Shown here: positions 13,024-61,626 of the stretch, one piece after another | Layout: every line of letters starts with the position of its first letter | Position numbering within the stretch: the first letter of the stretch is position 1 | Source of the DNA: a virus | Taxonomy: Duplodnaviria > Caudoviricetes | Reading direction: 5' to 3' (one strand) | Virus record (IMG/VR): IMGVR_UViG_3300008262_000001 | DNA length: 64,000 nucleotides | Notes under the pieces: generated by a model | Told to the model about the DNA's origin: nothing | What the model saw: the letters and a program-made list of their open reading frames with translations, nothing else | The model's database searches: none | Position numbers and translations under genes: made by a program

Positions 13024-16000
13024 ATGAAAAAAATAATAGACTGTTTTACATTTAATAATGAATTCGAACTTCTGGAGCTTAGACTTGCTGAAATTTATGA
13101 TGTTGTGGATCAATTTATATTGGTAGAGGCAAACACAACACACCCAGGAAAAAATAAAATATTTTTCTTTGAAGAGAATAAGTGGAGATACGAAAAATGG
13201 ATTGATAAAATTATCCATCTTAAAGTAAATTTTCCTTTGCACTTAGATACTTGGGGAAGAGAAAAATATCAAAGGAATTCAATTATGCCTACTTTATACT
13301 CGTTAGGATTATCAAATGATGATATAGTTGTAATTAGTGATCTCGACGAAATCCCAGATTCGAGCACACTAAACTACATAAAAACTAGTTATCCAATGAA
13401 AGGATTATTTAAGCTAGAGATGGATCATTATTGGGCTTCTATTTACAACAAATTAGTATATCCAGAAAAATGGTATCATGCAAAAATAGTAGACTGGGAG
13501 ACTTTAAAAGGAAGAACCCCAGATGAGTGCAGGCTAGATTTTAATTGTCAATGGTGGGAAAGAGGAGGATGGCATTTATCTTATTTTGGAGGTCCTGAAA
13601 TTATAATTAACAAAATCAATAGTACTGCTCACCAGGAATTAAACCAGGAAAGATTTAAGATAAAGGATGAGGTAATAAGAAAGGTGAAAGAGGGATTAGA
13701 TCTTTTTGACGAATGGAGAACATTCCAAAAAATAGATCCTTTAGAAAATACATATCTTCCTAAAAACTGGGGAATTCTTTCAAAAAACGAGGAAAAATAT
13801 GGGAATAAAATAAAAAACAAAAATAACCTAGTATTAGGAGCCGCCATAAATCTTTCATTAGAAGATATAAGAATTTTTGTAGATTCATTTAGAAGTAAAA
13901 ATCTTAATGACGATGTATATCTGATTATTGAAGAATCAGCATCGCAGGATAAATTGGATTACTTAAAAAAGAATTCAGTAGAAATACTCTCATTTGAATC
14001 AGGGCAAATACTTGAAACGCAACCTAATAATTACAGGTTCATCAAATTCTTAGATTTTTTAAAAGAGAAAAATACATATAAAAATGTTCTTCTATCGGAT
14101 GTTTCTGATGTATATTTTCAATCCGACCCATTTGATGGATTAGATGGTGAATTCATATTTTTTGCGGAGGAGGATGAATCAGAATCAATAGGTTCGAACA
14201 AATTCAATTCTAGATGGATAATACAATGCTTCGGTGAAGAATACTTAGAAAAAATTAAAAATGAGAAAATAGTTTGCTGTGGAACTATTGTAGGATCATA
14301 TGGGAATATTCTTAAGTATTGTAAAAAAAGCTCCTCAGAAATGATCAGAATGTATAATGAGAGGAAAGACTTCTTTTATGACATGATGGATCAAGGAATA
14401 CACAACTATATCTGCTATAATTCTATAGAGGATTTTGTAAATCCGAGCATCAAGAAAAACGGGGATTTTTTCGCAACAATAGGTATTACCTGTGGAGTAG
14501 CACCTGAATCAATAGAGGTGAATGAATTAAAGATCCACGTCAATAAAAAAATACCATCGGTAATCCACCAATATAATAGATCCCGTGAAATTACAGATTC
14601 TATTAAGACACTATTACAGTTGGAAGGAATCGGAGATAAAGTTCTTGAAACTAAAATAGAGGGGTTTTCTATTCTAACATTAAGCAATGATGCTATCGGA
14701 AGAGGAATAAATAAGGGTGAGTCCTGGGAGCCTCATATAGTTTCTTTTCTAAGAAATTACCTAGATAAAGAATCCGTTTTTGTCGACATAGGAAGTAACT
14801 ACGGATGGCATTCATTGATAGCATCTAGCTTATGTAAAACAGTCCACAGTTTTGAGCCTCAATCTTTAATTTATTCTCTCCAGAAAGAAAGTATCAGGAA
14901 AAATAAATTTGAAAACATAATTCAATATAAAAAAGGATTAGGTAGCATAATAACACAATCCAATCTTTCTCCTATAAATTATCACGAAAATGGACTAAAT
15001 ATAGGTGACCTGGGTGTGGGATTAAACGGGGAAAATATAGAAATTATAACTCTTGATTCTATAAACATAGAGAAAGTAGATTTAATTAAGATTGATGTTC
15101 AGGGGTACGAAAATTTTGTCATAGAGGGAGCTACGAAAACTATAGAAAAAAATCGGCCTATCATAATAATAGAGATAGAAGAATTCCAGCTTTCTAAATT
15201 TGGTTTTTCTTCAGCTAACATATTTGAAAAAATAAGAGGCCTGAATTACGAAATCTATCTGATGGAACATTCTTATCCGTCAGATCATATCTGTGTTCCT
15301 TTAGAAAAAGCGGATGAATTTGAGAAAAAAAATAATATAGATCCACTCACTGAAAACAACAACATAAGTAACAGTTATGCTAATGGAGTAAGAAAGAAAT
15401 TTCTGAAATCAAAAAAAAGTTTATCTGGAATACTAGACTTTAATAGAATAAACGGATTTGATAGCGAGGGCGGAACAGACAAAGGAACACTTCATAGCTA
15501 CATAGAAACTTACGAAAGGATCCTATCTAAATACATTGGAAAAAAATCATCAATACTGGAGGTTGGAGTTCAATACGGGGGATCATCCCTTTTATGGCAC
15601 GAGTATTTGGAGGATTCAAATCTAGTAATGGCAGACATTAAAGATCAGATAGGAAAAAATATATTGGACAGATTAAATCAGGAAAGATATAAATTCCACA
15701 TTTTTGATGCTTACACTAAGGAATCACTAGAAAAAATCAAAGAAGAAAATCCCGAAGGATTTGATATTTTGATAGATGATGGACCTCATACATTAGAGAG
15801 TCAAAAGTTTTTTATCAAAAATTACATATCACTAGCAAAAGAAAATAGTGTTATGATTATCGAGGATATTCAAGATATAAATCATACTGCAATATTAAAA
15901 GAATGCTTACCTGAGGAATACAGGGAATCTATAGAGATTATAGATCTTAGAAATCAAAAAAATAGGTACGATGATATAATGTTTATAGTACATATTGGAG

Positions 16001-16653
16001 ATAAAAAATATAAATCCTCCAATTTGGATTTTACATTTGGATGGATTTCTCACAATAAAGAGGCTTTTGAAAAATACCTAGGTCCTTCTCTAGAAAAAAT
16101 AGATGGAAAATATCAATCTATATCCACGGACGACTCAAAAAATCCAGCATATAATTACAATAAAATAATAAGTGAATGTAAAACAAAATGGCTTATTTTG
16201 TGCCACGAGGATGTAGCATTTTCTAATGATCTTTTAGATCAAATAAAAGAAACCGTAAAATTAAACCCAGATTCTAAATTTTTCGGGATGGCAGGATCTA
16301 ATGGCAATCAAATAATTTCTTCAGATTCAAAAGAGTCGAGAGATATTTTAACAGCGGATTCATGTTTTATAGTTATTGATACAGAAAACTTAGATCTCAA
16401 TTTCGACGAAAATACATTTGACGATTTTCATTTATACGTTGAAGATTTTTGTGTACAATTAGGAGAAAATGGAAAGACTATATTGTGTGATTACACGGAA
16501 CCCTATAATTACCCAGATGAGAAAGAAAATAAGAAAAAATGGATTCTACATGGAGGATCTACATATTTTCAATTGGGTTCTCAGTGGGGAAGATATAAAG
16601 AATACAAGGAGAAGTTAAATAAAAAATGGGGAAGAGAAATTCCAACTACATAA
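13024..16653 (+). CDS. multidomain glycan-modification protein: GT17-like + GT-like + FkbM methyltransferase + class I SAM methyltransferase + GT-A domain
   Basis: DCFTFNNEFELLELRL / ISDLDEIP / GGWHLSYFG (GT17); SDVSDVYFQSDPF; VDIGSNYG...IKIDVQGYE (FkbM); TDKGTLHSY...LEVGV...IDDGPH; LCHEDV (GT-A). Confidence 0.85.
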   Translation: MKKIIDCFTFNNEFELLELRLAEIYDVVDQFILVEANTTHPGKNKIFFFEENKWRYEKWIDKIIHLKVNFPLHLDTWGREKYQRNSIMPTLYSLGLSNDDIVVISDLDEIPDSSTLNYIKTSYPMKGLFKLEMDHYWASIYNKLVYPEKWYHAKIVDWETLKGRTPDECRLDFNCQWWERGGWHLSYFGGPEIIINKINSTAHQELNQERFKIKDEVIRKVKEGLDLFDEWRTFQKIDPLENTYLPKNWGILSKNEEKYGNKIKNKNNLVLGAAINLSLEDIRIFVDSFRSKNLNDDVYLIIEESASQDKLDYLKKNSVEILSFESGQILETQPNNYRFIKFLDFLKEKNTYKNVLLSDVSDVYFQSDPFDGLDGEFIFFAEEDESESIGSNKFNSRWIIQCFGEEYLEKIKNEKIVCCGTIVGSYGNILKYCKKSSSEMIRMYNERKDFFYDMMDQGIHNYICYNSIEDFVNPSIKKNGDFFATIGITCGVAPESIEVNELKIHVNKKIPSVIHQYNRSREITDSIKTLLQLEGIGDKVLETKIEGFSILTLSNDAIGRGINKGESWEPHIVSFLRNYLDKESVFVDIGSNYGWHSLIASSLCKTVHSFEPQSLIYSLQKESIRKNKFENIIQYKKGLGSIITQSNLSPINYHENGLNIGDLGVGLNGENIEIITLDSINIEKVDLIKIDVQGYENFVIEGATKTIEKNRPIIIIEIEEFQLSKFGFSSANIFEKIRGLNYEIYLMEHSYPSDHICVPLEKADEFEKKNNIDPLTENNNISNSYANGVRKKFLKSKKSLSGILDFNRINGFDSEGGTDKGTLHSYIETYERILSKYIGKKSSILEVGVQYGGSSLLWHEYLEDSNLVMADIKDQIGKNILDRLNQERYKFHIFDAYTKESLEKIKEENPEGFDILIDDGPHTLESQKFFIKNYISLAKENSVMIIEDIQDINHTAILKECLPEEYRESIEIIDLRNQKNRYDDIMFIVHIGDKKYKSSNLDFTFGWISHNKEAFEKYLGPSLEKIDGKYQSISTDDSKNPAYNYNKIISECKTKWLILCHEDVAFSNDLLDQIKETVKLNPDSKFFGMAGSNGNQIISSDSKESRDILTADSCFIVIDTENLDLNFDENTFDDFHLYVEDFCVQLGENGKTILCDYTEPYNYPDEKENKKKWILHGGSTYFQLGSQWGRYKEYKEKLNKKWGREIPTT

Positions 16654-43321: not shown

Positions 43322-44986
43322 CTAATTGCCAACTAAGAAATTTTTAACTTCTATAACTTCAGGGGTAGTGAACACATACATGTATAACCCGCAGGGGTGA
43401 TTATCGTAATCAATCGACATTATGTTTTCAGGTTGAATGTTTGTCTCTAAACATTTCTTGCCATTCATGTCATATACTTCAATTGTTCCTTGACTATCCG
43501 ATAGATTTTTAAAGAACACCTGGTTTGGAGATGATTGGATTTGTAACGATTCTTTCCTTCCTATTTCCTTGCTTGGTAAATCTTCTGCATCCAATTCACT
43601 ATTAGCGTTCTCTCCGGTGTTTAAAAATCTAATCGTCTGTGAGCAAACAGATGAATTTCCTGAGCAATCTGTAACTGTCCATTGTCTAATCAAAGTGTAT
43701 TCATTTGAGCAATCGGTATCAAAAGCAAAATCACCCGCTCCAGAAATTGGAGCGAACTGTCCTGGTTGACTCGGAAATACTCCAGAGTAATTGAACCAAC
43801 CACCAAATCCATTAGCTGAGGAATTATAGTTATTGGCTCCGTTCCCGTACTGAAAACCAAAATATTGATTTGCAGGAGCGTGAGTTAGACTTATTGCAGA
43901 TCCTGTATAATCGCCGAATCCAGTTAACTCTGCACCATCGCCATTGTTTAATAGATAGTAGATCCACGAATCGTGATTTGACTCACTGCCGTTGCAGTCT
44001 GCTTTGAAGCTTGTGGGATAAGATAAAGAAGTCCATTCTTCCCAAGTATATGCTCCAGTAAAAGTAACATCAACAAGAAATCCATTTTGGTTGTTGAATA
44101 CGTTTGTCAGCATTGCAGATATTCTGATTGTGTTACTATCAATTTGAGTTATCTGTCCAGATTCAACACTATAAAACCTATGGAGAACAGGTAAGTTCAT
44201 CAATTGCATTCCCCAATCAACTAACCCACCATTTACGATAACGTCGCAATTACCACCACTTGATGCAGGTGGAGTAAATATCGAACAATTGGGTGTACTA
44301 TCACCTAAATAGAATTCTTCATAATTAACTGTAAGGTTCTGGTCACAATTATCAGAGACTAAGATCTCGTAACCCTCTGGTAATGTTTCTCCCGTACTTA
44401 AAACAAGATCTGGCGGACAATTACTTATAGTGGGTTCAGATAAGTCCTGAAAAGAAATATTTTGACTGAAATAAGAAGAGTTACCGCATTCATCTGTTGC
44501 GGTCCAAATTCTATAGAAAGAAGAATCACATCCAAAATACTGAACTTCAGTATCTTGATAAGTAAGAACAATGTCCGATGAGCAATTATCAATGACTTGA
44601 GGATATGCGAGAGTATCATCAGATCCACATCCCACTACAATTTGACTTTGTAGATTAACAAAAGAAGGGGATGATTCATCAACAATATAGATGTTTTGTG
44701 ACTCAACTGCTTGGTTGCCTTGATCATCAAAAGCTCTATAAACCCTGAATATATTGATAGATCCTGCACAGTCTCCAGAAAAAACCTCTTCGTAGAATAC
44801 AAGCTCAACTAGAGTATCACAGTTGTCAAAGACATCAGGAATAGCAGAAGATAAATCATCATTGCAACCTAAAGTCACATTGGGATTAAAGTTAACATAC
44901 CAGGGATTAATAGTATCACCTGCACAAGACTGAGAAAAGATCTGCAAATAAAAAAGTGTAAAAAATAATAGAAGTGAATATTTCAT
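43322..44986 (-). CDS. secreted HYR-like/Ig repeat protein with T9SS type A C-terminal domain
   Basis: Signal MKYSLLLFFTLFYLQIFSQ; repeats DNCD...RIWTATDECGNSS; C-terminus IEVYDMNGKK...GLYMYVF. Confidence 0.8.
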   Translation of the reverse strand: MKYSLLLFFTLFYLQIFSQSCAGDTINPWYVNFNPNVTLGCNDDLSSAIPDVFDNCDTLVELVFYEEVFSGDCAGSINIFRVYRAFDDQGNQAVESQNIYIVDESSPSFVNLQSQIVVGCGSDDTLAYPQVIDNCSSDIVLTYQDTEVQYFGCDSSFYRIWTATDECGNSSYFSQNISFQDLSEPTISNCPPDLVLSTGETLPEGYEILVSDNCDQNLTVNYEEFYLGDSTPNCSIFTPPASSGGNCDVIVNGGLVDWGMQLMNLPVLHRFYSVESGQITQIDSNTIRISAMLTNVFNNQNGFLVDVTFTGAYTWEEWTSLSYPTSFKADCNGSESNHDSWIYYLLNNGDGAELTGFGDYTGSAISLTHAPANQYFGFQYGNGANNYNSSANGFGGWFNYSGVFPSQPGQFAPISGAGDFAFDTDCSNEYTLIRQWTVTDCSGNSSVCSQTIRFLNTGENANSELDAEDLPSKEIGRKESLQIQSSPNQVFFKNLSDSQGTIEVYDMNGKKCLETNIQPENIMSIDYDNHPCGLYMYVFTTPEVIEVKNFLVGN

Positions 44987-45042
44987 ATTTTGGAAATGGT
45001 TTGAAAAATTATACACCGTTTCCAAAAAAGATTACAGAAGAC

Positions 45043-51251: not shown

Positions 51252-51709
51252 TCGGAAACTAAATGTGTTATACCCAAGCTTTCTAACATGTCTTTATCCC
51301 AATTTTTATAAAATCCAATTTTTACAAGTAATGACCTTGCAACATTTAGCTCGGATTTTTTTTGAATCAACATAGCAGGATGTTCCCAAACCGTTTTCTT
51401 TCCCAGTAAAGTTAGTGTTTCGTCTGGATGTGAATTCAAAAAAATATATTCGGGATATTCAAGATTGTAACAGTCACAAATATCAGCAAGATCTTCATAA
51501 CTTATATCTAAATAAGGAACAATACAAATAGAAATTTCTTCAGTGAATGGAACTAACTCAGAAATTGTTGGCCTATTCTCTACAAGTTTAACCTCATCAT
51601 TTAACCAAGCTTTCATAGCAAAGGGACAAGCAGGTCCTGAATCTAATGATGATATCCTCAAAATCCATTCATATAAAGATTTTTGTAAATTTGTGGAATC
51701 TGTTAACAT
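51248..51709 (-). CDS. DUF1415-like hypothetical protein
   Basis: ACPFAMKAW, FLNSHPDE, MLIQKKSEL. Confidence 0.6.
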   Translation of the reverse strand: MLTDSTNLQKSLYEWILRISSLDSGPACPFAMKAWLNDEVKLVENRPTISELVPFTEEISICIVPYLDISYEDLADICDCYNLEYPEYIFLNSHPDETLTLLGKKTVWEHPAMLIQKKSELNVARSLLVKIGFYKNWDKDMLESLGITHLVSE

Positions 51710-51724
51710 TTTTATTATTTATCC

Positions 51725-52438
51725 CTAAACGTGAATCAAATACCAAGCTCCATCAAAGTCTTCCACTAAACAGCTTGAATTTTCACAAAAGTCCCCTGAA
51801 TTCATATAGTCACTTTCCATTTTAGGATAATGTATGTGACCACAAACAGCTACATCATATCCTTTTTGTTTCGTTAATGCTTTAGCATTTTCTTCAAAAT
51901 CAGAAACAAAATTTATAGCTCCCTTAACCGACTGCTTAACAGAATTAGCCAAAGAATGATACGGAAGATTGAATTTTTTCCTTGTATAATTATAGATTGT
52001 ATTTAGTCGAATAACTAAGTCATAAGACCACCCACCAATGACTGCAAGCCATCTGGCTTTCATAATTACAAAATCAAGAACATCTCCATGAAAGCAAAAA
52101 TATTTTCTCCCATCTATCCCATAATGAACGTATTTCCTTGTAATTTTTATATTGTTTAAAGTGAAAGGTATAAATGGTTTTAAAAAATCGTCATGGTTTC
52201 CCCTGATATAAATAACTTCAGTTCCAGTCTCGGAAAATTTCATAAATTTTCTAAATATCTTAGTGCAATCCTTTTTCCATTTACTACCATTTTTTAAAGC
52301 CCAGCCATCAATTATATCCCCGTTTAGTATTAATTTTTCAGATTTATTGGTTCTCAAAAACTGTATTATCTTGTCCGTTTGAGATTGTCTAGATCCCAAA
52401 TGCAAATCACTCATTATAATAGTTTTCCATTCTCTCAT
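51725..52438 (-). CDS. metallophosphoesterase, UDP-2,3-diacylglucosamine diphosphatase (LpxH-like) family
   Basis: SDLHLG, LNGDIIDGW, IRGNHDD, FHGD, CGHIH, NSGDF. Confidence 0.88.
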   Translation of the reverse strand: MREWKTIIMSDLHLGSRQSQTDKIIQFLRTNKSEKLILNGDIIDGWALKNGSKWKKDCTKIFRKFMKFSETGTEVIYIRGNHDDFLKPFIPFTLNNIKITRKYVHYGIDGRKYFCFHGDVLDFVIMKARWLAVIGGWSYDLVIRLNTIYNYTRKKFNLPYHSLANSVKQSVKGAINFVSDFEENAKALTKQKGYDVAVCGHIHYPKMESDYMNSGDFCENSSCLVEDFDGAWYLIHV

Positions 52439-52758
52439 ATGAGATTAGAGACTATTTGGGCTACCTTATATCCAGTGAAAGCTCCAAGTGATGCAGACCC
52501 AGGTAAAATAATAAATCTTCCCAGTTTTGTTTTATATTTTTCCCTATTAACTATATAAGAAATGAGCATGTAATAGAGTAAAAAATTTAAAAAAACCAAA
52601 GAATCAACTTCTTTCGACATGAAAACAACAATTGAATTACCCATAAATCCCCAAGAAAAATTTATAAAAGTTTCTTTAATCAATTCTAAAGGGGTAGTGA
52701 TGGCTCCAAAAATATCAATGGATTGAGTTAGGGGATTATCTTTCTTTGCACTTTTCAT
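52435..52758 (-). CDS. membrane protein
   Basis: 3 hydrophobic segments; coupled to both neighbours. Confidence 0.7.
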   Translation of the reverse strand: MKSAKKDNPLTQSIDIFGAITTPLELIKETFINFSWGFMGNSIVVFMSKEVDSLVFLNFLLYYMLISYIVNREKYKTKLGRFIILPGSASLGAFTGYKVAQIVSNLI

Positions 52759-53459
52759 TTCCAGTAAGTTTTGTGTCCGGAGAAAAATTCTTTATTATTC
52801 CTGTGAAGATAGGATTTACACATTAATTTAAGCATGTACCATATCCCCTTATTCTCAAATCTTCTAGCGGGAGTAAAAATATTTTTTCTAAGAATCCCAA
52901 ATTTACCATTTGAAATTTTTTTCGATAACAAATAGTCTTCTGCTACCTTAGCATCTTCATCAAAACCTCCCAAATTCTGAAAAGTTTGAGTCCTAAACAT
53001 CATAAACCCTCCAAGACAAAAAGGGGTAAAAGGTTTTATTAATTTTTGAATTAAATCAAAACATCTAAACACGTAATTATAATTTCCATTGGAAGTTCTA
53101 ACCTTTGTAGTTAAAAGATCGAGATTATTGTTTTTAATTGAATCGATACACTCAGAAAGCAAATTCATATCCAATATGAAAATATCGGCATCCATGAACA
53201 AAACATAGGGTGTTGTAACAAGTCTTGCACCGGCATTTCTAGCCTTTCCTGGTAATCCCCCATTTATTACACAAAGGTTAAATCTGTAGGAGTTACAAGA
53301 TTTTAGAATTTCTTTAGTACCATCATCAGAATCATCGGCTACAATTACGGTTGTGCCATCGATATTTTTTTGAGAATTTAATAAATTCAAAGCAGTAACA
53401 ATAATCCCAGATTCATTCTTGCAGGGGATCACTATAGTTAGAAGGTCTTTTAAATCCAT
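52755..53459 (-). CDS. GT2 glycosyltransferase
   Basis: TIVIPCKNE, VADDSDDGT, ARNAGA, FMDAD, GFDE..AEDY. Confidence 0.9.
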   Translation of the reverse strand: MDLKDLLTIVIPCKNESGIIVTALNLLNSQKNIDGTTVIVADDSDDGTKEILKSCNSYRFNLCVINGGLPGKARNAGARLVTTPYVLFMDADIFILDMNLLSECIDSIKNNNLDLLTTKVRTSNGNYNYVFRCFDLIQKLIKPFTPFCLGGFMMFRTQTFQNLGGFDEDAKVAEDYLLSKKISNGKFGILRKNIFTPARRFENKGIWYMLKLMCKSYLHRNNKEFFSGHKTYWK

Positions 53460-53620
53460 AAAAATCCGGAGGAAATGGGATTTCCGTTTTTTAGTTTTTC
53501 TTGATTTATATATTCAAGAAAAAATGATCCTTATGCTAAGGATTGGAATAATAACAATTTCTTTATTCTGATATTACCACAGAATAAAATCCTCGAACTT
53601 TTAGGGGTTTAATATTGTAG

Positions 53621-53762
53621 TGATCGAGGAAGGATTCGAACCTTCACAGCTGTCATTATAGTGACCGCATTTTTTCAATGCTTTTTTTACCACAAGGCTA
53701 TAACCTCGTTACGTCTACCAGGAGATAATTATCTAGAATCATCCCACTTCCGCCACTCGATC
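53621..53762 (-). ncRNA. tRNA-like RNA with expanded arms (element 1, 142 nt)
   Basis: Acceptor GATCGAG/CTCGATC; TGGCGGAA...GGTAGACG D-arm frame with inserted hairpin; stem ACGAGG/CCTTGT; two variable hairpins; T-arm GAAGG-TTCGAAT-CCTTC. Confidence 0.75.
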
Positions 53763-53765
53763 AAA

Positions 53766-54065
53766 TTGGGTGGGTTAATGAGTGGTTTCCCCCACCTCTT
53801 TTTACTCTGTATCAATCTACTAGCAAAGTAGTATCAACCTGCGCCACTCTGTGTTTTTCCCACCTTGAGATTACTGGTGAGTAGATATATCGGTTTTCTA
53901 TTTCTTAAAAACCTGTTGGTCTTACCCGTTGAAAACATCCAACACTACTGGGAGGAGGTGTGTCGCTCTCCTTTATTCCCATGATGTCCCACTCGCGCCG
54001 TAGACATTCTGCGGAATCATTCTTAAAGTCTTGATTCGAAGACTCTGAGTATCTCTTACTCATTG
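53766..54065 (-). ncRNA. structured non-coding RNA core, possibly GOLLD-like 3' domain
   Basis: No credible ORF; nested stems GGTGGG/CCCACC, GAGTGG/CCACTC, TGTTGG/CCAACA, TGAGTA/TACTCA, AGTCTT/AAGACT. Confidence 0.5.
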
Positions 54066-54239
54066 TAGTCAGGACAGGATTCGAACCTGTATGAACACTT
54101 TGAAATTTACCTACGCACAGTGAGGTAGTGTTCTTCATCATTCGCATTGCCTAATCATTGAGCGCTTTTACATTTCGGTTGCCGTGCGTGTCAATAAGCG
54201 TCTACCAAGGCCCAAAGCGCCTTATTCCGCCACCTGACT
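54066..54239 (-). ncRNA. tRNA-like RNA with expanded arms (element 2, 174 nt)
   Basis: Acceptor AGTCAGG/CCTGACT; D-loop hairpin AAGGC/GCCTT; TATTGA/TCAATG stem with 29-nt loop; variable GAACACT/AGTGTTC; T-arm ACAGG-TTCGAAT-CCTGT. Confidence 0.75.
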
Positions 54240-54540
54240 ATATTCAAAGGAAAACAGAAGATGGGGGTGTGGACATCTGTTTTTACGATTGGCATTTCTT
54301 GCTAGTGCTAGCCCCTAATTCCCAACCAACCAGTATTTCAAAGAACTCATAATTTATACTGGCAAAAAAGTAAAGAATTCCAAAGTGTAGATTAAAAATT
54401 GAAAGAAAGCTAATTTTTGACTTTAACGCAATTGGGAACGATCTTACCGTTTTTGTCCTTTGTCCCAATTTGTTTGTATCCCTTCCAGCAGGGATTTTTT
54501 TTCTCAGCTATAAATTCCTTGTAATTTAGTATCATATTGA

Positions 54541-54855
54541 TTAAATATTTCTAACCGGGCGAATACCCAGTTTGTTAGATCTAGTATTTTTTGAAGAGTA
54601 TGATCCTGTACTAAAATTTATAACCGCATTGTAACCATCTTGAGTTGATCGATCACTCCAATATAATCCTGTTGGATTAAAACCAAGAATTCCAAGTTTG
54701 TGAAGTTCGTACAAATAGCCAAGCTCCTTAAGAGTTGGAATTCTCCAATCACCTCCCCTAAGAGCTGAACATAAAGCCTTACCACTTAAAAATTCCCTAT
54801 CTGGGAGATCCCTATAGAAAATTTCCAGATCTCCAACTATTAGATTTTTTTTCAT
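54541..54855 (-). CDS. DUF1566/Lcl C-terminal-like protein
   Basis: DWRIPTLKELGYL...YWS...GIRPVRNI. Confidence 0.75.
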   Translation of the reverse strand: MKKNLIVGDLEIFYRDLPDREFLSGKALCSALRGGDWRIPTLKELGYLYELHKLGILGFNPTGLYWSDRSTQDGYNAVINFSTGSYSSKNTRSNKLGIRPVRNI

Positions 54856-54944
54856 GTCAGTATTCCTTATATATTAAAGAACATCATAAATATATAAAAG
54901 GGATATTCTCAAAAAATTTCCTAAACTTAAACAAAAAACTAATC

Positions 54945-55502
54945 ATGAGGAAACTATTTATTACCCTTTTAGCACTTGTTCCTGTGGCTCTGTTTTCCCA
55001 ATCAACACTAAGCCCAGACACTGTTTGCTTCCAATCAACGGAATCAATTTACCAAGTTGATAATGAAGCTGGGAACACCTACACCTGGACTGTTCAAGCT
55101 CCTGGTGTTATACTTTCAGGTCAAGGCACCAACATTATTAATGTTGACTGGGCAGGAGCTGCTCCTGGATTAATAGGCACTGCAGTATCTGTTTTTCCTA
55201 CAAACCAATACGGGTGTGTGGGCCCAACAGTCAATATGGATGTTTTTATTTACAACGAAACACCTGTTGTCACCCCAATGACTTTTTGTTTTGATGAACC
55301 ATGCACTAATCTAATAGGAACACCCCTTGGAGGAACATGGAGTGGTCCAGGAGTTGTTGGTGCTCAGTTTTGCCCGAGCACAGCAGGTGTTGGGGATCAC
55401 GTTGTGACATACACATACACAGTAGGAGAATGTGTATTTACTGCCACAGGAACAATGACGGTTTATCCAGTACCGACTATTTCTCCCATTAGTCACGACT
55501 AA
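54945..55502 (+). CDS. secreted Ig/PKD-like protein
   Basis: Signal peptide; YTWTV, GQGTNIINVDW, GGTWSGPGV, FCPSTAGVG motifs of Bacteroidota surface proteins; ends YPVPTISPISHD. Confidence 0.8.
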   Translation: MRKLFITLLALVPVALFSQSTLSPDTVCFQSTESIYQVDNEAGNTYTWTVQAPGVILSGQGTNIINVDWAGAAPGLIGTAVSVFPTNQYGCVGPTVNMDVFIYNETPVVTPMTFCFDEPCTNLIGTPLGGTWSGPGVVGAQFCPSTAGVGDHVVTYTYTVGECVFTATGTMTVYPVPTISPISHD

Positions 55503-56065
55503 TGAAACGTTTAGTTTTGTTCGTGCTATTGGTGCTGAGCAAATTCTCCTTTACACAGCAAACAATAGAACTTTGCGAAGATTATAAAAACACTTTCACT
55601 TATTACTCTTCATCGAATGTTGTGGGGAGTTGGTTCTGGACAGTTGGCTCAGATACTCTTTCACATTCAAATACAGTCACTATCACTTGGGACACTCCTG
55701 GGAATTATGAAATAGTAGCTAATTTTGAAAGTGGCTGTCCAATAAACCCTAAAACTTATTGGGTCCATGTTATTGAGTGCATGGAATCAATAATCTATTT
55801 TCCCAACGCATTCACACCAAATGCTGATGGGATAAACGACAGGTGGGGTCCAAATGGAATGGGTATTGTGAAAATAGAATGGAAAATATTCGATAGATGG
55901 GGATTACAAATTTATGAATCCCACTCAATAGAAGATCTTTGGGATGGCTCTTTCAGAGGAGGAGATTATTATGTGCAAAATGACGTTTATATATATAAAG
56001 CGGAATGGACAGGAAAAGACGGGGCAACAGGAAGTAAAATAGGACACGTTGTACTAATAAGATAA
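55502..56065 (+). CDS. secreted protein with gliding-motility-associated (T9SS type B) C-terminal domain
   Basis: YFPNAFTPNADGIND, IFDRWGLQIYES, WDG, VYIYK, GHVVLIR. Confidence 0.9.
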   Translation: MKRLVLFVLLVLSKFSFTQQTIELCEDYKNTFTYYSSSNVVGSWFWTVGSDTLSHSNTVTITWDTPGNYEIVANFESGCPINPKTYWVHVIECMESIIYFPNAFTPNADGINDRWGPNGMGIVKIEWKIFDRWGLQIYESHSIEDLWDGSFRGGDYYVQNDVYIYKAEWTGKDGATGSKIGHVVLIR

Positions 56066-56075
56066 AAACAAAAAT

Positions 56076-57221
56076 ATGAAACACTGGGTAACAATAGTGT
56101 TTTTCATAGCAAGTCTTTCTTCATTTTCTCAGTGTGACAATGCAGATTTTGAACTAGGAAATTTTTCAGGTTGGTCAGGAAGAACTGGGTTTTGCTGCCC
56201 AATAGACTTGCCCAATGCAGGATTAGTTGCGACCAGACACCTTATCACATCTGGATCAGGAACAGATCCCAGAACATGCAACCAAGTACCAGTAGTTTCA
56301 CCACTGGGGGGAAATTTCTCAGCTAGACTAGGAAATCCAAATAGAGGATCTAGAGCAGAAAGCCTAAGCTACACTTATACAGTGACAGCAAACTCAAGTC
56401 TCTTTACCTACCAATATGCTGTGGTATTTGAAGATCCTGGACACATCGATGATGAACAGCCAAGATTTGAAACCCAAGTTATTGCAGGAGGCAATCCCAT
56501 TCCATGTACCCAATATATGGTGAGCTCATCATCCAATCTTCCTGGATTTCAAACCTGTCCAGGTATAGATTGGCAAGGAAACCCTATTAATATTGTTTAT
56601 AGAAACTGGACAACAGTAGGAGTGGATCTTAGTGCATTTATTGGCCAATCAGTAACATTGGAATTCAAAACAGGTGATTGTGATCTTGGTGCACATTTTG
56701 GATATGCTTATATAGATGCAATCGGATGTCAGCCAATGGAACTAGAGGTCTTGTATTGTGTTCAAGATAGTGTTGCAAATCTCACCGCTCCACCAGGGTT
56801 TGCAAGTTACCAATGGAGCACAGGAGAAACCTCTCAATCAATCACGGTTGATCCAGACATTTACGATCAAATAACTTGTACTCTAACCTCTTTTTCCGGA
56901 TGTGTTGCTACCTTGACCACATTCATAAATCCAGCAGACCCGCAAGTGAACTTTTCATCAGAAAATTCATGCTTCTGTGAAGACTCCTCAGCAGAATTCA
57001 TCAATTCATCAACATCAATCCATAGTCCAATAATTGCTTGGCTTTGGGAATTCGGAGACGGTACAACATCTACAGAGCAATCTCCCACACACATCTATAC
57101 ACAACCAGGAACATATAATGTCACACTAACTGCCACTACTGAATTAGGATGCTGGGATTCAAGAACTTATCCTGTCACATTTTATCCATGTCCAACCATT
57201 TCTCCTATATCGCATAATTAA
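56076..57221 (+). CDS. secreted PKD-domain protein (SprB-like N-terminal module)
   Basis: NADFELGNF, WEFGDGTTSTEQSPTHIYTQPGTYNVTL (PKD); ends YPCPTISPISHN. Confidence 0.85.
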   Translation: MKHWVTIVFFIASLSSFSQCDNADFELGNFSGWSGRTGFCCPIDLPNAGLVATRHLITSGSGTDPRTCNQVPVVSPLGGNFSARLGNPNRGSRAESLSYTYTVTANSSLFTYQYAVVFEDPGHIDDEQPRFETQVIAGGNPIPCTQYMVSSSSNLPGFQTCPGIDWQGNPINIVYRNWTTVGVDLSAFIGQSVTLEFKTGDCDLGAHFGYAYIDAIGCQPMELEVLYCVQDSVANLTAPPGFASYQWSTGETSQSITVDPDIYDQITCTLTSFSGCVATLTTFINPADPQVNFSSENSCFCEDSSAEFINSSTSIHSPIIAWLWEFGDGTTSTEQSPTHIYTQPGTYNVTLTATTELGCWDSRTYPVTFYPCPTISPISHN

Positions 57222-57224
57222 GGA

Positions 57225-57857
57225 CTATTCCACTGCGACTAAATATCCATAAGGATTGAAAGTGGCACCCTTTCCAAAGAAATCACAAATTCCAATATTG
57301 ATTCTAAATCTGTCTGAATACTGGTCTAGTTCAGCAACAAATTTATTAGGGCCACCTTTTAACGATGGCTGGTTAGAAGCAATCCCGTCCTCGATAATAT
57401 AATAGCCGCCTTTTTTGACCAAGGGATTAAACTTTATAAAAGCATCCCTAACATCATCATAAACATGTGATCCGTCATCGATCACGAGGATATTTTCATA
57501 ACCCTCACATTCACTTAAATCATAACTTTGGTAACCTCCAAAGTAACACTTGATCCTGGGATTCTCCATTACCTGATTGTCATACTCCCTTTCTTTCAAA
57601 TCAATAGTGTGTACCACACCATCTCCTAACTTCTCTAAAATATCAGCAATATAAAGTGCACCACCACCATTGAAAGTTCCTATTTCAATTACTAAATCTG
57701 GATTCAACTCAGTTATAACCATCTGATATAAGACATAATCAAATGGACATTTAACATAGTTAATACCCCGGTAAAAAACTCCGAAATGACCAGTTCTTTT
57801 ACCAGGATCTCCATAAATATCTTTTAGACTAACAACGGGATCAGATTTTTCACTCAT
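57225..57857 (-). CDS. CmcI (cephalosporin hydroxylase-family) SAM methyltransferase
   Basis: KCPFDYVLYQ, PDLVIEIGTFNGG, VIDDGSH, YYIIEDG. Confidence 0.85.
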   Translation of the reverse strand: MSEKSDPVVSLKDIYGDPGKRTGHFGVFYRGINYVKCPFDYVLYQMVITELNPDLVIEIGTFNGGGALYIADILEKLGDGVVHTIDLKEREYDNQVMENPRIKCYFGGYQSYDLSECEGYENILVIDDGSHVYDDVRDAFIKFNPLVKKGGYYIIEDGIASNQPSLKGGPNKFVAELDQYSDRFRINIGICDFFGKGATFNPYGYLVAVE

Positions 57858-57906
57858 AGATAGATGTTTGACATCTTACCCAATAACACAGAAAAATTTC
57901 AAGAAC

Positions 57907-58443
57907 TCAACCACTTATACCTTTAGATCTCATCTTGGAGATAATTCTAGAAAAATCTATTCCAGAGACTTTTAATTCCCCAATGTCCATTAAACTCCAA
58001 ATTGATCTTTTCTCATACGGAGGACTCCAATATGATTGGCCAAAGGACCAATTAAAATAAACAGTATCTAATTCAGGATTTTGAATAATAGTAACACTGG
58101 CAAATGCCAAGGGATGTGTTGAATACCCAAGCATATCAAAAACCTCATTCATCACCTCTTTACCCAAATAACTATGTTCGGTTGTGAAGTGGTCTCCCTC
58201 AATCTTTTCAATGATATCATTAGCAGTTTGCTGACTAATTGGAAAGATATCCCAGCCTGGTGTATAATGAGATTCGTAAATACAAACAATAGCCGAAGGA
58301 ACTGTATCAAATTTATCTACTGTTTCAAAAATAGGAAACTCAAGAGGATGACTTCCAATAACAATCCATGCCTCCTCGCTCAATATAGCAGGATGAGAAC
58401 CATTCTTCGTTACAAAAGATCCAAGATAAACACTATTAGACAT
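57907..58443 (-). CDS. hypothetical protein
   Basis: 178 aa; GATATATA at 58450-58457. Confidence 0.65.
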   Translation of the reverse strand: MSNSVYLGSFVTKNGSHPAILSEEAWIVIGSHPLEFPIFETVDKFDTVPSAIVCIYESHYTPGWDIFPISQQTANDIIEKIEGDHFTTEHSYLGKEVMNEVFDMLGYSTHPLAFASVTIIQNPELDTVYFNWSFGQSYWSPPYEKRSIWSLMDIGELKVSGIDFSRIISKMRSKGISG

Positions 58444-58592
58444 GTCTTTTATATATCGGCAAAAATATCACAAAAACATTTTTTTCTCTTCTGGGTTTTT
58501 TCTACATTTACTTATATATCCAAGACCTCCAAAATGCTCGCGCTTTTTAGGCCCCCTGGGACCTCTTCAGCTTGTAGATTTTTCTAAGTCCC

Positions 58593-59081
58593 CTAGACTA
58601 AACCAGAGACTTCCAACTTTTGCAAAAAAGTCCACACACTCACACGAGAAGGAATAATCCTGGACAACTCCTCAGAAACAAAAAGAGGATCATAACTCTT
58701 AGACCAATCCACAGACTTCACCTCCATAGTCACATAAGCACTCTCCTGACCACAGTACTCTGCATATTGCTCAGACAACTCAGAAAGGACCTCTTCAGAA
58801 CCCAAGTCAGCAAGACTATAAGGTCCATCACCAAAATACTTCAACATAGGAACAATCGAATCATCTATATAGCTATGTAACATTTCATTACGTGTGACAT
58901 CAACCACAACATAAATCTGAGGATGAGTCAAAGAAATAATAGCCATACCAAAAGGGCCATCACTCCAATCAAATAGGAGGTTACCATTGACATCACGCAT
59001 CTCCTCACCAGTCTCATCTCTCTTCGACCTAATAGGAAAATGATGAAACAAACTTATAAGTGCAAAACCCCCTTCCTGCAT
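58593..59081 (-). CDS. hypothetical protein
   Basis: 162 aa; GATATATA at 59098-59105. Confidence 0.65.
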   Translation of the reverse strand: MQEGGFALISLFHHFPIRSKRDETGEEMRDVNGNLLFDWSDGPFGMAIISLTHPQIYVVVDVTRNEMLHSYIDDSIVPMLKYFGDGPYSLADLGSEEVLSELSEQYAEYCGQESAYVTMEVKSVDWSKSYDPLFVSEELSRIIPSRVSVWTFLQKLEVSGLV

Positions 59082-59109
59082 AAATCCTATTTGTTACTAT
59101 ATATCACCC

Positions 59110-59311
59110 GAGGCGCATCCCTAGGAACACCCATTCCACCGCGCACGTAAAAATTTCAAAACAGCACACACCCACTTTTTAGGGCCCAACATCCCCCAAC
59201 ATAGTAAATGTATATAAATACAAACCCGAAAACTCGAGGCGAACCCTAAAAACCCCCATTCCACCCCGCACGTAAAAATTTCAAAAACGGACACACCCAC
59301 TTTTTAGGGCC
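59110..59311 (+). repeat. two imperfect ~77-bp direct repeats (59110-59187, 59236-59311)
   Basis: Both contain GAGGCG...CCCATTCCACC.CGCACGTAAAAATTTCAAAA...CACACCCACTTTTTAGGGCC. Confidence 0.9.
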
Positions 59312-59407
59312 TAGGCCCACCCCTAGATAATACAAATGGGGATATCTCCTACATAGCATAGAAGGCAAAGAGATATAAGGTCTAAAGACTCTCCCAGACA
59401 TACCCTT

Positions 59408-59944
59408 AAGGCGAACCATCTAAGATATACCAAGAAGGAAAGCCTTGAAGTGAAGCTCTAAGACATATAGGGTGTGGAAACTTTGAGGCGAACCTCTAAG
59501 ACATCAGGTATGGAAACTTTGAGGCGAACCCTAGAAAAAGGCCAATTTCTAGGCTCGCTAATTTTTCTAGGGGCCTAGACCTGGGGAAAATCGCCGTATA
59601 GGCCCACCGGCCCCTTGGGTCTGTAAAACTTGTGTTTTTAGGGTTTTTTTAGGGGGATGTGACCACTTTGCATAGGAGGGGGGTAAAAGGGGGTATCCTC
59701 TATAGGGCCATTATTTTGGGTGTTTCTTGCAGGATAAGGGTTTTGTCAGGGATTGTCTTTGGAATTGGGGGTGCCTCAGAAGGGATTCTTTCTATAATCA
59801 GCATGTACAAAAGGCCATAGTGCTGAGACAATGTGAATGGGGTGCCTCAGAAGTAATCCTGTCTCTGGTTTTTCCGCGAATACTCTCGGAATCTGCAGAT
59901 TGCTGGGAAAGCATCTTGACATCTATTTCTTTGTGGGGTGCCTC
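59408..59944. repeat. iteron-like GAGGC-core repeats in opposite orientations
   Basis: (G/A)AGGCGAACC at 59408, 59485, 59521 on +; GGTGCCTC (GAGGCACC on -) at 59770, 59841, 59937. Confidence 0.8.
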
Positions 59945-60117
59945 AGAGAGGCTTATTTTAAGTGCTTTCCTTGGATAATATCCAGATTTGGAGTGACATG
60001 ATATTGTGGGGGTTCCGCAGGTGGACAGATTCTTTTCCAAATCATGTGATTTTTTTGGGTCTTGTCTCTTTTAGGGGAGTTTGGGAATAGATAGTAGTAC
60101 TAAATAAATTTTGATTT

Positions 60118-60378
60118 ATGGAATTATTGCTTAAATGGTTTAACGAGAAGGATAAGCTTCAGCATGTATTGGCTGGTGGGGTGATTTTTGTGCTTTTTTC
60201 TATTGATTTTAAATGGGTGTGGGCTTGGTTAGCGGTGGTTGTTGCTGCTTTGGGAAGGGAATTATGGGGATATTGGTTTAGTAAGAAGCGTATTAGTCTT
60301 GAGGATATAGGAGCGACATTGTTGGGAGGGGGTTTATTTTGTCTACTTCTCTTTGCTCACTACCAGAACAACTTGTAG
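60118..60378 (+). CDS. small membrane protein (VanZ-like KDK..H / E...D pattern)
   Basis: KDKLQHVLAG...GRELW...SLEDIGATLLGG. Confidence 0.65.
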   Translation: MELLLKWFNEKDKLQHVLAGGVIFVLFSIDFKWVWAWLAVVVAALGRELWGYWFSKKRISLEDIGATLLGGGLFCLLLFAHYQNNL

Positions 60379-60677
60379 ATGAACTATTAGAAGGGAAGGT
60401 GCCTTCGAGTCGGATTTAGAAATGGTGTAACTCTTGGGTTTTAAAGAAATCATGTGTAGCATATGCCTAGATGAGGAGCCTCATATTGGATACAGATGTA
60501 TTTCTTTTTTGGACAATCTTTATTATAGAAGGGAAAATCAAGAAATCAAGAGTAGCATATGCTTAGATGAGGTGCCTTCTTCAAGTGTTGAAAGAAACCA
60601 AAAAACCTCAACAAAAGAACTCTCATCTTTTTTACTTTTAACCCTTTGTATCGTGGACATTTTATACTCTTAAAAAT

Positions 60678-60948
60678 TATGATAATAAAAGAAATCAAAG
60701 AAGATGGATTCTCTATTGGTAGAGAAAATGATCCTAGAGCTAAAACTATCATAATCAAGCGTGGTATTAATGCAAAGATTAATAGAGCTTATGATAATCT
60801 ACCCGCACTTATTCAACTCTTGATTCTAATGATACTAGTTGGCTCTCAAATGATTTTTACTCACTATTTTGGAAACATTGGGTATATCTACTGGTCTATA
60901 CCTACACTTATTTTTTCTATATCTAGGTTTATTTACATTATGAAATGA
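60678..60948 (+). CDS. hypothetical membrane protein
   Basis: Two C-terminal TM helices; start MIIKEIKED assumed. Confidence 0.55.
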
Positions 60949-60972
60949 TTGTTTGCCCAGATGAGGTGCCTG

Positions 60973-61299
60973 CTATTGAATAGAAGTGCTTGTGTTTTCT
61001 CCTTTCCACTTTTTTGGGTCTCTTTGAGGAGTTTTGTTGTTCTTGTAACCTTCTGGGTAGTACTTTTCGATTGATTTGTAGTGCTTCCAAGAGTGTCTAA
61101 GCATGAGAATTAGTGGTGTGACCACAAGGAAGGGGATAATTAGAGATATTGGACCGTGTGTGTACCATAGAGTGTAGTGGTCTTCTGATGGGATGAATTC
61201 GTTATGGAGATAGCCTCCGAGTATTAGTAGACACATTCCCATGTGGTATTTGTAATTTTTGAAGATAACTGTGAAGAGGAGATACCAGTCTGTTTTCAT
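60973..61299 (-). CDS. hypothetical membrane protein
   Basis: Two TM helices; AATATATA upstream. Confidence 0.6.
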   Translation of the reverse strand: MKTDWYLLFTVIFKNYKYHMGMCLLILGGYLHNEFIPSEDHYTLWYTHGPISLIIPFLVVTPLILMLRHSWKHYKSIEKYYPEGYKNNKTPQRDPKKWKGENTSTSIQ

Positions 61300-61362
61300 G
61301 ATGATGTTTTTCTTATATATTTAATCTATATTTGTGGAGTTACGGTTTAAATAGTAAAAACT

Positions 61363-61626
61363 ATGAGTGAGCAAAAGATTAAAATTCGTATGATTGAGAC
61401 ATGGACAACTATAGTTGTTAGGGAATGTCTTGAAATTGATGCTAAAGAGTTTTCTGAGCTTGATGGAATGACAGTTGAGGAGATGCAGAATTATATAAAA
61501 TCCAACTGGCATGAGATGGAGAGTGAAAGACATGGGGTTTCTCTTTCCATTTTTGAGATGTGCTGTAATGAGGATGTTGCTAGTGAGAGAATAAAGAATG
61601 AAACTTATGATGTTGAGTTTGAGTAA
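61363..61626 (+). CDS. hypothetical protein
   Basis: 87 aa; TATATTTG (-7 element) at 61327-61334. Confidence 0.65.
   Translation: MSEQKIKIRMIETWTTIVVRECLEIDAKEFSELDGMTVEEMQNYIKSNWHEMESERHGVSLSIFEMCCNEDVASERIKNETYDVEFE

Follow-up and report, generated by a model that had tools for sequence, protein, structure and literature searches.

How could proteins that lack a sorting domain of their own be handed to an infected cell's type IX secretion system (T9SS)? This question is raised by three close-packed genes, A, B and C, which lie on the + strand within positions 54945–57221 of a 64,000-nucleotide stretch of viral DNA (Duplodnaviria; Caudoviricetes; IMG/VR record IMGVR_UViG_3300008262_000001; the whole stretch is called the window hereafter). 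A sequence-only reading of the window had proposed that this operon feeds the host T9SS, with a sorting domain on the middle product only and a common ending on the two flanking ones. We observed that the products of A and C end in a short tag, that the tag runs through their families in phages, and that the split form (a tagged cargo with a separate sorting domain) and the form with a fused C-terminal sorting domain (CTD) are mutually exclusive. The reading we put forward, to which we give even chances, is that the tag takes the place of a covalent CTD and links the cargo with B, the candidate carrier, for T9SS-dependent display on the cell surface.

The open reading frame (ORF) listing agreed with the earlier description of three coupled genes, to each of which a Sec signal peptide had been assigned. 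Gene A (54945..55502, +) encodes 185 amino acids (aa), with a signal-peptide-like segment (about residues 1–19), a PKD_6 immunoglobulin (Ig)-like domain (PF19408, 37.9 bits, cut-off 25, 2.4e-9), a second Ig-like domain and a free C-terminal tail. Gene B (55502..56065, +), whose ATG overlaps the TAA of A as TAATG, encodes 187 aa comprising a signal-peptide-like segment, a small PKD-like domain (about residues 21–95) and a T9SS type B sorting domain (residues 99–187; FPNAFTPNADGIND … GHVVLIR; 55796..56062, +). Gene C (56076..57221, +) begins 10 nt downstream of B; its 381-aa product has a signal-peptide-like segment, a MAM-like jelly roll (about residues 20–225, unannotated in the domain searches), an Ig-like domain (about 226–286), a PKD domain (287–370; PF18911, 66 bits, cut-off 27) and a free tail. 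At their N-termini A, B and C have a basic n-region, then a hydrophobic core and then S/T-Q (…FSQ, …FTQQ and …FSQC), with Gln behind the likely cleavage site, and are signal-peptide-like by inspection; residues 2–16 of A and C form a helix in the AlphaFold2 models. The type B domain was indeed confined to the middle gene. B matched CHU_C (PF13585) at 49.1 bits (cut-off 27) and TIGR04131 at 48.8 bits (cut-off 35) over residues 99–187, and its C-terminal end, GHVVLIR, resembles the ends of fused type B CTDs. A and C gave no CTD match at E ≤ 1 in Pfam and NCBIfam, and are not canonical T9SS substrates. We also considered the trio as a pseudogene, that is, three pieces of one broken gene; this was ruled out because all three genes start with a signal-peptide-like segment of their own and dozens of phages keep the trio.

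A terminates in YPVPTISPISHD and C in YPCPTISPISHN, the shared endings being PTISPISHD and PTISPISHN, respectively. The tag of A, PVPTISPISHD (residues 175–185; 55467..55499, +), consists of a Pro-rich linker plus I-S-H-D at the free C-terminus, and that of C, PCPTISPISHN (residues 371–381; 57186..57218, +), forms the C-terminal end of the gene C product. The near-identity of the last 12 residues had been noted in the earlier reading; in a six-frame scan of the 64-kb window (ORFs of at least 40 aa), A and C were the only ORFs ending in H[ND]. At six of the nine residues in common, A and C differ in their choice of synonymous codon (CCG/CCA, ACT/ACC, CCC/CCT, ATT/ATA, AGT/TCG and CAC/CAT), and these differences rule out a recent duplication or gene conversion of the tag. 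As the codons differ at synonymous sites, it is on the peptide that selection has held the match, which does not stem from a recent DNA copy. The earlier observation on the three genes and their endings is thus fully confirmed.

The tag is a property of whole families. Homologues of C number several hundred; among the best 120 inspected, 111 (93%) are without a CTD and end in N or D. These 111 CTD-less proteins have Ile at −4 without exception (111/111), His at −2 in 87/111 and N/D at −1, while all of the A homologues (27/27) end in I-x-H-[ND]. The A-family alignment (A3) shows no change at P177, P181 or I182 and a conservation of at least 90% at H184; in that of the C family (A5), I378 does not vary, and conservation is 90% or more at P373 and H380. 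The Ile at −4 and the N/D at −1 are kept across sequences that are just 45% identical, and sublineages carry the variants I-Y-T-[ND], I-I-I-N, I-Q-F-N and V-F-T-N. A third, unrelated cargo, a beta-propeller, is also tagged in phage contexts (L096 …GPIQHN; P0185, P0201 …PISHD; P0195 …QLIIN). This propeller family is very large and its members are mostly long CTD proteins, with type B CTDs in about 83 of 150 listed relatives. The earlier reading had suggested searching for the C-terminal motif and its gene neighbours; the search recovered the tag family-wide, often beside a stand-alone mini-CTD gene. Comparison of the sequences therefore supports the view that the ending is a real, selected and modular tag. 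An intein-like 'HN' ending was considered and dropped, the preceding domain being a PKD domain with nothing after the Asn.

Tags on different cargoes of one phage agreed in the class of the −2 residue in all of the phage groups compared (10/10). The ten groups were the window with L001–L003 and L005/L099; L004/L100 (G001); L106–L113 with L119–L120; L107; L121; G006; L008; L163; L117/L118; and L133. Most groups are of class H/H, and T/T is the class of L117, L118 and L133; in L008 and L163 the residue is aliphatic or aromatic. This concordance within a phage fits one common reader of the tags, which could be B or a host protein alike.

The same conservation invites a chemical explanation, in which the C-terminal Asn or Asp is a covalent attachment site, whether by transpeptidation or by an isopeptide-like bond with B or a surface polymer, with a sortase-like outcome. 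Asx-His chemistry occurs in protein-ligating and self-cleaving systems, and a last residue that is N or D in 111 of the 120 C homologues, behind a conserved His, would suit it. However, the operon holds no ligase, sortase or PorU-like gene, the His is swapped for T, F, I or Y in whole sublineages, and we know of no precedent for it in type B cargo. We regard covalent attachment as improbable.

The tag and a fused CTD were found to exclude one another. A scan of one genome per prokaryote species found the C-type domain in at least 588 bacterial loci, all in Bacteroidota. The best 80 of these loci gave 64 unique ORFs, of which 58 end in a type B CTD, none ends in the tag and 6 are truncated or unclear; every classifiable bacterial locus (58/58) thus has the domain fused to a type B CTD and carries no tag. 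In five bacterial genomes with a fused C-type domain, no ORF ends in PI.H[ND].

In viruses both forms occur. We compared 39 IMG/VR loci, which fall into four groups. In 18 tagged loci a small stand-alone CHU_C protein is adjacent, in the gene orders A-B-C, C-A-B or B-C. One further tagged locus lies on a contig that stops directly after the A gene. In eight loci the cargo is fused to a CTD, with neither a tag nor a small CHU_C neighbour, and the remaining 12, a subfamily ending in …VFTN or …ILHD, have no CHU_C within 5 kb. Two contigs with the fused form (G012 and G013), searched whole, have CHU_C only at the ends of ORFs of 602–886 aa and contain no ORF ending in I.H[ND]. The complete phage G006, on the other hand, carries two separate pairs of tagged cargo and carrier: A with a 192-aa B at 239 kb, and C with a 111-aa protein, Bmin, at 271 kb, the latter consisting of a signal peptide and a CTD and nothing else. 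In G005 and G006 the tag is found on A and C only, and L163 combines a B-like protein with two tagged ones, a propeller and an A-like protein. Fused and split forms do not co-occur, the genes adjoin in several orders and the complete phage pairs them 1:1; comparative genomics thus gives good support to a functional link of tag and carrier. In some relatives an ORF of 60–64 aa, absent from the window, lies between the carrier and C genes (L006:7820-8014 and L008:7812-7994); its product looks acidic and cytoplasmic in L006 and lipoprotein-like in L008.

The tree of the N-terminal domain places most viral sequences in a single clade, which is mainly tagged and has three small fused lineages inside it. 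A second viral group (L122–L136) is sister to a bacterial gene deep within the bacterial clade (Shimodaira–Hasegawa-like approximate likelihood-ratio test, SH-aLRT, 100), and L133 of this second lineage has a set of A-like, B and C genes. A single viral clade was rejected by the approximately unbiased (AU) test at p = 2.8e-6, although the group was named after the tree was seen, which weakens the test. Together, the AU test and the second viral group inside the bacterial clade indicate that phages captured the C-type domain from bacteria at least twice, and that the tag sits on cargo from both captures, as both lineages include tagged forms.

These data bear on the possibility that the tail has no sorting role. 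It might be a leftover inter-domain linker from a gene fission, kept as a cap against periplasmic proteases, with A and C being periplasmic or acting after lysis and B being unrelated to them. The Pro-rich part (YP.PTIS) does resemble an ordinary linker after PKD/Ig domains in multi-domain relatives. A remnant would not be expected to hold an invariant Ile at −4 and N/D at −1 across 45%-identical sequences, three unrelated cargo families and two independent phage acquisitions. Moreover, the linkers of the fused relatives, whose tails were inspected, show no tag-like motif, and the association with a mini-CTD gene is left unexplained. A linker remnant is hardly a likely account of the tail.

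The predicted structures indicate where the tail lies. AlphaFold2 models of C and A have a pLDDT (predicted local distance difference test) of 90 and 89, respectively. The last beta-strand stops at Y370 in C and at Y174 in A (strand 163–174), and the 11-residue tails that follow are lower-confidence coil outside their own folds, with a pLDDT of about 58 for the tail of C. The sequence-only reading had allowed that the motif might simply complete the Ig fold of each protein. We found no point in favour of this: besides the strand ends, the Pfam PKD match in C stops at residue 364, and we consider completion of the own fold very improbable. The top Foldseek matches of the C fold are the MAM-Ig-FN regions of RPTPmu and PTPRK, along with fragments of the grappling-hook protein GhpA of Aureispira. 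In its model C has an adhesin-like layout (MAM-like jelly roll, Ig and PKD domains), with no sign of a polymer; the surface filament that had been envisaged for infected cells therefore finds no support here.

Prediction of the multimer, another step suggested at the outset, was run on mature B with mature A, each with its own alignment, and gave a score of 0.48 against 0.16 for the best control. Of the 80 solved complexes 58 attained the mark for this score, as did 2 of the 110 mismatched pairs; scores that passed it at 0.60 or under came from 7 of the 80 solved complexes and from both of the mismatches that passed. The B + A runs agreed in at least 98% of their contacts, with a partner pLDDT of at least 88. 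The prediction thus lends weak support to a contact between the two proteins.

How the tail might engage B can be narrowed by the smallest carrier. Provided that B bears the docking site, it should be found on the CTD itself, since Bmin contains no domain besides it, and this argues against a general donor-strand mechanism that uses an Ig groove. Pili of the chaperone-usher and type V (FimA/Mfa1) kinds are held together by a terminal extension that lies beyond the Ig fold of its subunit and inserts into the partner. The tails of A and C likewise lie outside their own Ig folds and could insert into a partner; unlike in those pili, Bmin has no Ig domain and there is no usher, chaperone, lipoprotein processing or sign of polymerization. 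Donor-strand complementation, the docking mode first proposed, is accordingly not supported, since the carrier of one relative is a signal peptide and a CTD alone.

The fused-versus-split pattern makes a tag that stands in for the peptide bond between cargo and CTD the most economical reading. The course of events would be as follows. In Bacteroidota bacteria, adhesin-like cargo domains of the A and C type are covalently fused to a type B CTD. A jumbo-phage lineage would have swapped this CTD for a short tag, a Pro-rich linker plus I-x-[H]-[N/D]-COOH, with the CTD supplied in trans by the adjoining mini-protein B. A, B and C would reach the periplasm through Sec, where the free tags of A and C may dock on B, or on a complex of B and a host PorP/SprF-type shuttle. 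The host T9SS would then carry the CTD-less cargo to the surface of the infected cell or anchor it there, and the displayed cargo might act as a phage-directed adhesin or as a surface-remodelling layer. More speculatively, such display could serve adhesion of infected cells, interference with gliding adhesins, or receptor masking against superinfection. The gene architecture, the family-wide tag, the exclusive forms, the gene neighbourhood and, in the models, the free tail were observed; binding, co-export and surface location of A and C are inferred, and the physical mechanism of their coupling to B is a proposal. The more specific proposal, that I-x-H-[N/D]-COOH is a new, phage-specific, trans-acting T9SS address by which CTD-less periplasmic proteins plug non-covalently into a stand-alone type B carrier and ride the T9SS to the surface, is a serious candidate to which we give somewhat less than even chances.

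Several observations weigh against coupling through B. The 12 tagged loci of the …VFTN/…ILHD subfamily have no CHU_C within 5 kb or in the searchable 24–32% of the genome, and the tagged propeller of G001 lies about 5 kb from B and has no carrier of its own. B has 34 near-length homologues, and no column of B co-varied with the tag class or discriminated between the classes. The complex score of B with A sits in the weak band of predictions, and the concordance of tags within one phage would arise equally with a reader from the host. In the literature searched we found no trans-acting CTD and no such tag, and piggy-back export through the T9SS is likewise without a report there.

Most of these points would suit a different reader. 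The tag might be recognized by a host component, such as a PorP/SprF-type shuttle, PorV, SprA or another periplasmic or outer-membrane reader of free C-termini, in which case B would be a small cargo in its own right, or a decoy that keeps host shuttles occupied. Besides the tagged loci and the propeller without a nearby carrier and the B columns that do not follow the tag class, a Bmin with the CTD as its sole domain would be in keeping with this. MAFFT also aligned the terminal ISHN with FTPN of the CTD motif PNAFTPN, which could mean signal mimicry, although a match of four residues has no statistical weight. Points that speak against a host reader are the tight synteny of tag and mini-CTD genes in three gene orders, the 1:1 pairing seen in G006 and the lack of small CHU_C genes at loci with fused cargo. 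In addition, the tag is not used by any bacterial protein examined, and the known T9SS signals are folded domains of 60–100 residues (PMC12618676). On balance, a host reader that bypasses B seems unlikely, and coupling of the tagged cargo to B is the reading we retain.

The phage setting assumed from the start was borne out by relatives that carry the cassette; these are IMG/VR contigs and include two jumbo-phage records of 294 and 322 kb, 100% complete by CheckV and encoding a large terminase. We take the source to be a freshwater jumbo phage that infects Bacteroidota. The 64-kb window itself holds no capsid or terminase gene; its matches include an endolysin, a phage-type sigma factor, a Dda-like helicase and many auxiliary genes. 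By blastn the operon has no match among INPHARED phages. PorP/SprF (PF11751) is absent from the phage records G001, G005 and G006, and none lies beside the operon; with no such gene in the phage relatives, B must use shuttle or T9SS parts of the host. That the operon feeds the host T9SS is thus supported, B being a bona fide type B CTD protein whose relatives come without a PorP/SprF shuttle. Elsewhere in the window (43322-45025, −) a 567-aa protein combines HYR_4C repeats with a T9SS type A sorting domain (TIGR04183, 24.9 bits, cut-off 23), and a conventional T9SS cargo, tagged covalently, is thus encoded by the phage as well.

The surroundings of the cassette vary. In relatives it is flanked by NAD-salvage, thymidylate synthase and RNA ligase genes and by many small ORFs. 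In the closest relatives, whose C is 89% identical, a 599-aa CHU_C protein and NAD-salvage functions (NAMPT and phosphoribosyltransferase-like) are encoded upstream of the cassette (L001:5114-7815); in the window (51700-53460) their place is taken by genes for a metallophosphoesterase, a small membrane protein and a GT2 glycosyltransferase. This region looks like a flexible island, judging by gene content. Directly upstream of the cassette, at 54541-54855 (−), a 104-aa protein with a weak Lcl_C (DUF1566-type) match occupies the same position in L001–L003.

Other features of the window are also of note. A 760-aa subtilase (Peptidase_S8) at 4184-6466 (+) is kept in related phages (L006:9869-12151 and L009:5317-7686) and lies within 1–2 kb of a C-family gene in two of them; it could be a processing protease for secreted proteins. 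At 13024-16653 (+) a 1209-aa fusion joins a GT17-like glycosyltransferase, an FkbM methyltransferase, a second methyltransferase and a GT2-like domain, and GT2 and CmcI-type methyltransferase genes lie near the cassette at 52755-53459 and 57225-57857. The fusion and these neighbouring genes suggest that the phage modifies surface glycans too. Downstream of the cassette, 59100-61000 has few long ORFs and many short direct repeats, with 68-nt copies at 59119 and 59244 and repeat families of 21–38 nt at 59228-59537, 59768-59960 and 60444-60974. An Rfam scan of 53300-61500, which takes in these repeats, returned nothing at gathering score, and a scan for promoters and terminators gave counts near chance expectation.

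If the proposed coupling holds, its consequences would reach beyond this locus. T9SS substrates are defined by a covalent CTD, and a cargo split from its signal and joined to it by a tag with a four-residue core would depart from that definition. It would be the first piggy-back export route for the T9SS, whose translocon could then move hetero-complexes, and would give jumbo phages a modular kit for re-dressing the Bacteroidota cells that they infect. Jumbo phages would be seen to invest in re-surfacing their hosts, having taken cargo at least twice and converted three cargo families to the tag, with a bearing on adhesion, gliding, superinfection exclusion and particle attachment in lakes. 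For the experimenter the tag would be a minimal handle for dissecting how CTDs and shuttles recognize each other, and a small display tag for use on Bacteroidota.

Short C-terminal motifs common to unrelated exported proteins of one genome are familiar from LPXTG, PEP-CTERM and GlyGly-CTERM proteins, where the signal includes a transmembrane helix and a basic tail and is cleaved by a dedicated sortase-like enzyme. The present tag shares the former trait, but it is polar and forms the extreme end of the protein, and no such enzyme is encoded nearby. A closer analogy for the proposed route is 'hitchhiker' co-export through the Tat system (E. coli PaoABC; PMC4273604), in which the export signal is on one subunit and folded partners are carried along; Tat differs in translocon and membrane and involves no conserved terminal tag, and a T9SS version of it is hypothetical. 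Feeding of the host T9SS by a phage of Bacteroidota has one report in the literature searched, that of 'Cryophage', which has type A sorting domains on an endoglucanase, a GH39 protein and a PA14 protein (PMC7468147). The present phage also has a type A CTD protein; the cargoes of 'Cryophage', however, carry their CTD covalently, and neither a split form nor a short tag was reported there.

The nearest relatives of the system are the bacterial type B substrates with their PorP/SprF shuttles. Cognate pairs are SprB/SprF and Fjoh_3952/Fjoh_3951 of Flavobacterium johnsoniae and PG1035/PorP of Porphyromonas gingivalis (PMC12618676, PMC9143113). Together with its cognate shuttle, a type B CTD is sufficient for export and settles where the cargo ends up (PMC12618676); the CTD alone is enough for export, and it also sets whether the cargo is loaded on gliding tracks or anchored statically (PMC12618676, PMC9143113). 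The way in which type B signals are recognized is still under study (PMC12618676). The phage proteins resemble these systems in that B has a full type B CTD with the usual motifs, a putative Sec signal peptide comes first on all of them, and the domains of A, C and the propeller are of the kinds carried by bacterial type B substrates. They differ in that the phage has no shuttle gene and would borrow that of the host, and above all in that cargo and CTD are here separate polypeptides, the cargo ending in a tail of about 11 residues made of a Pro-rich linker and a four-residue core.

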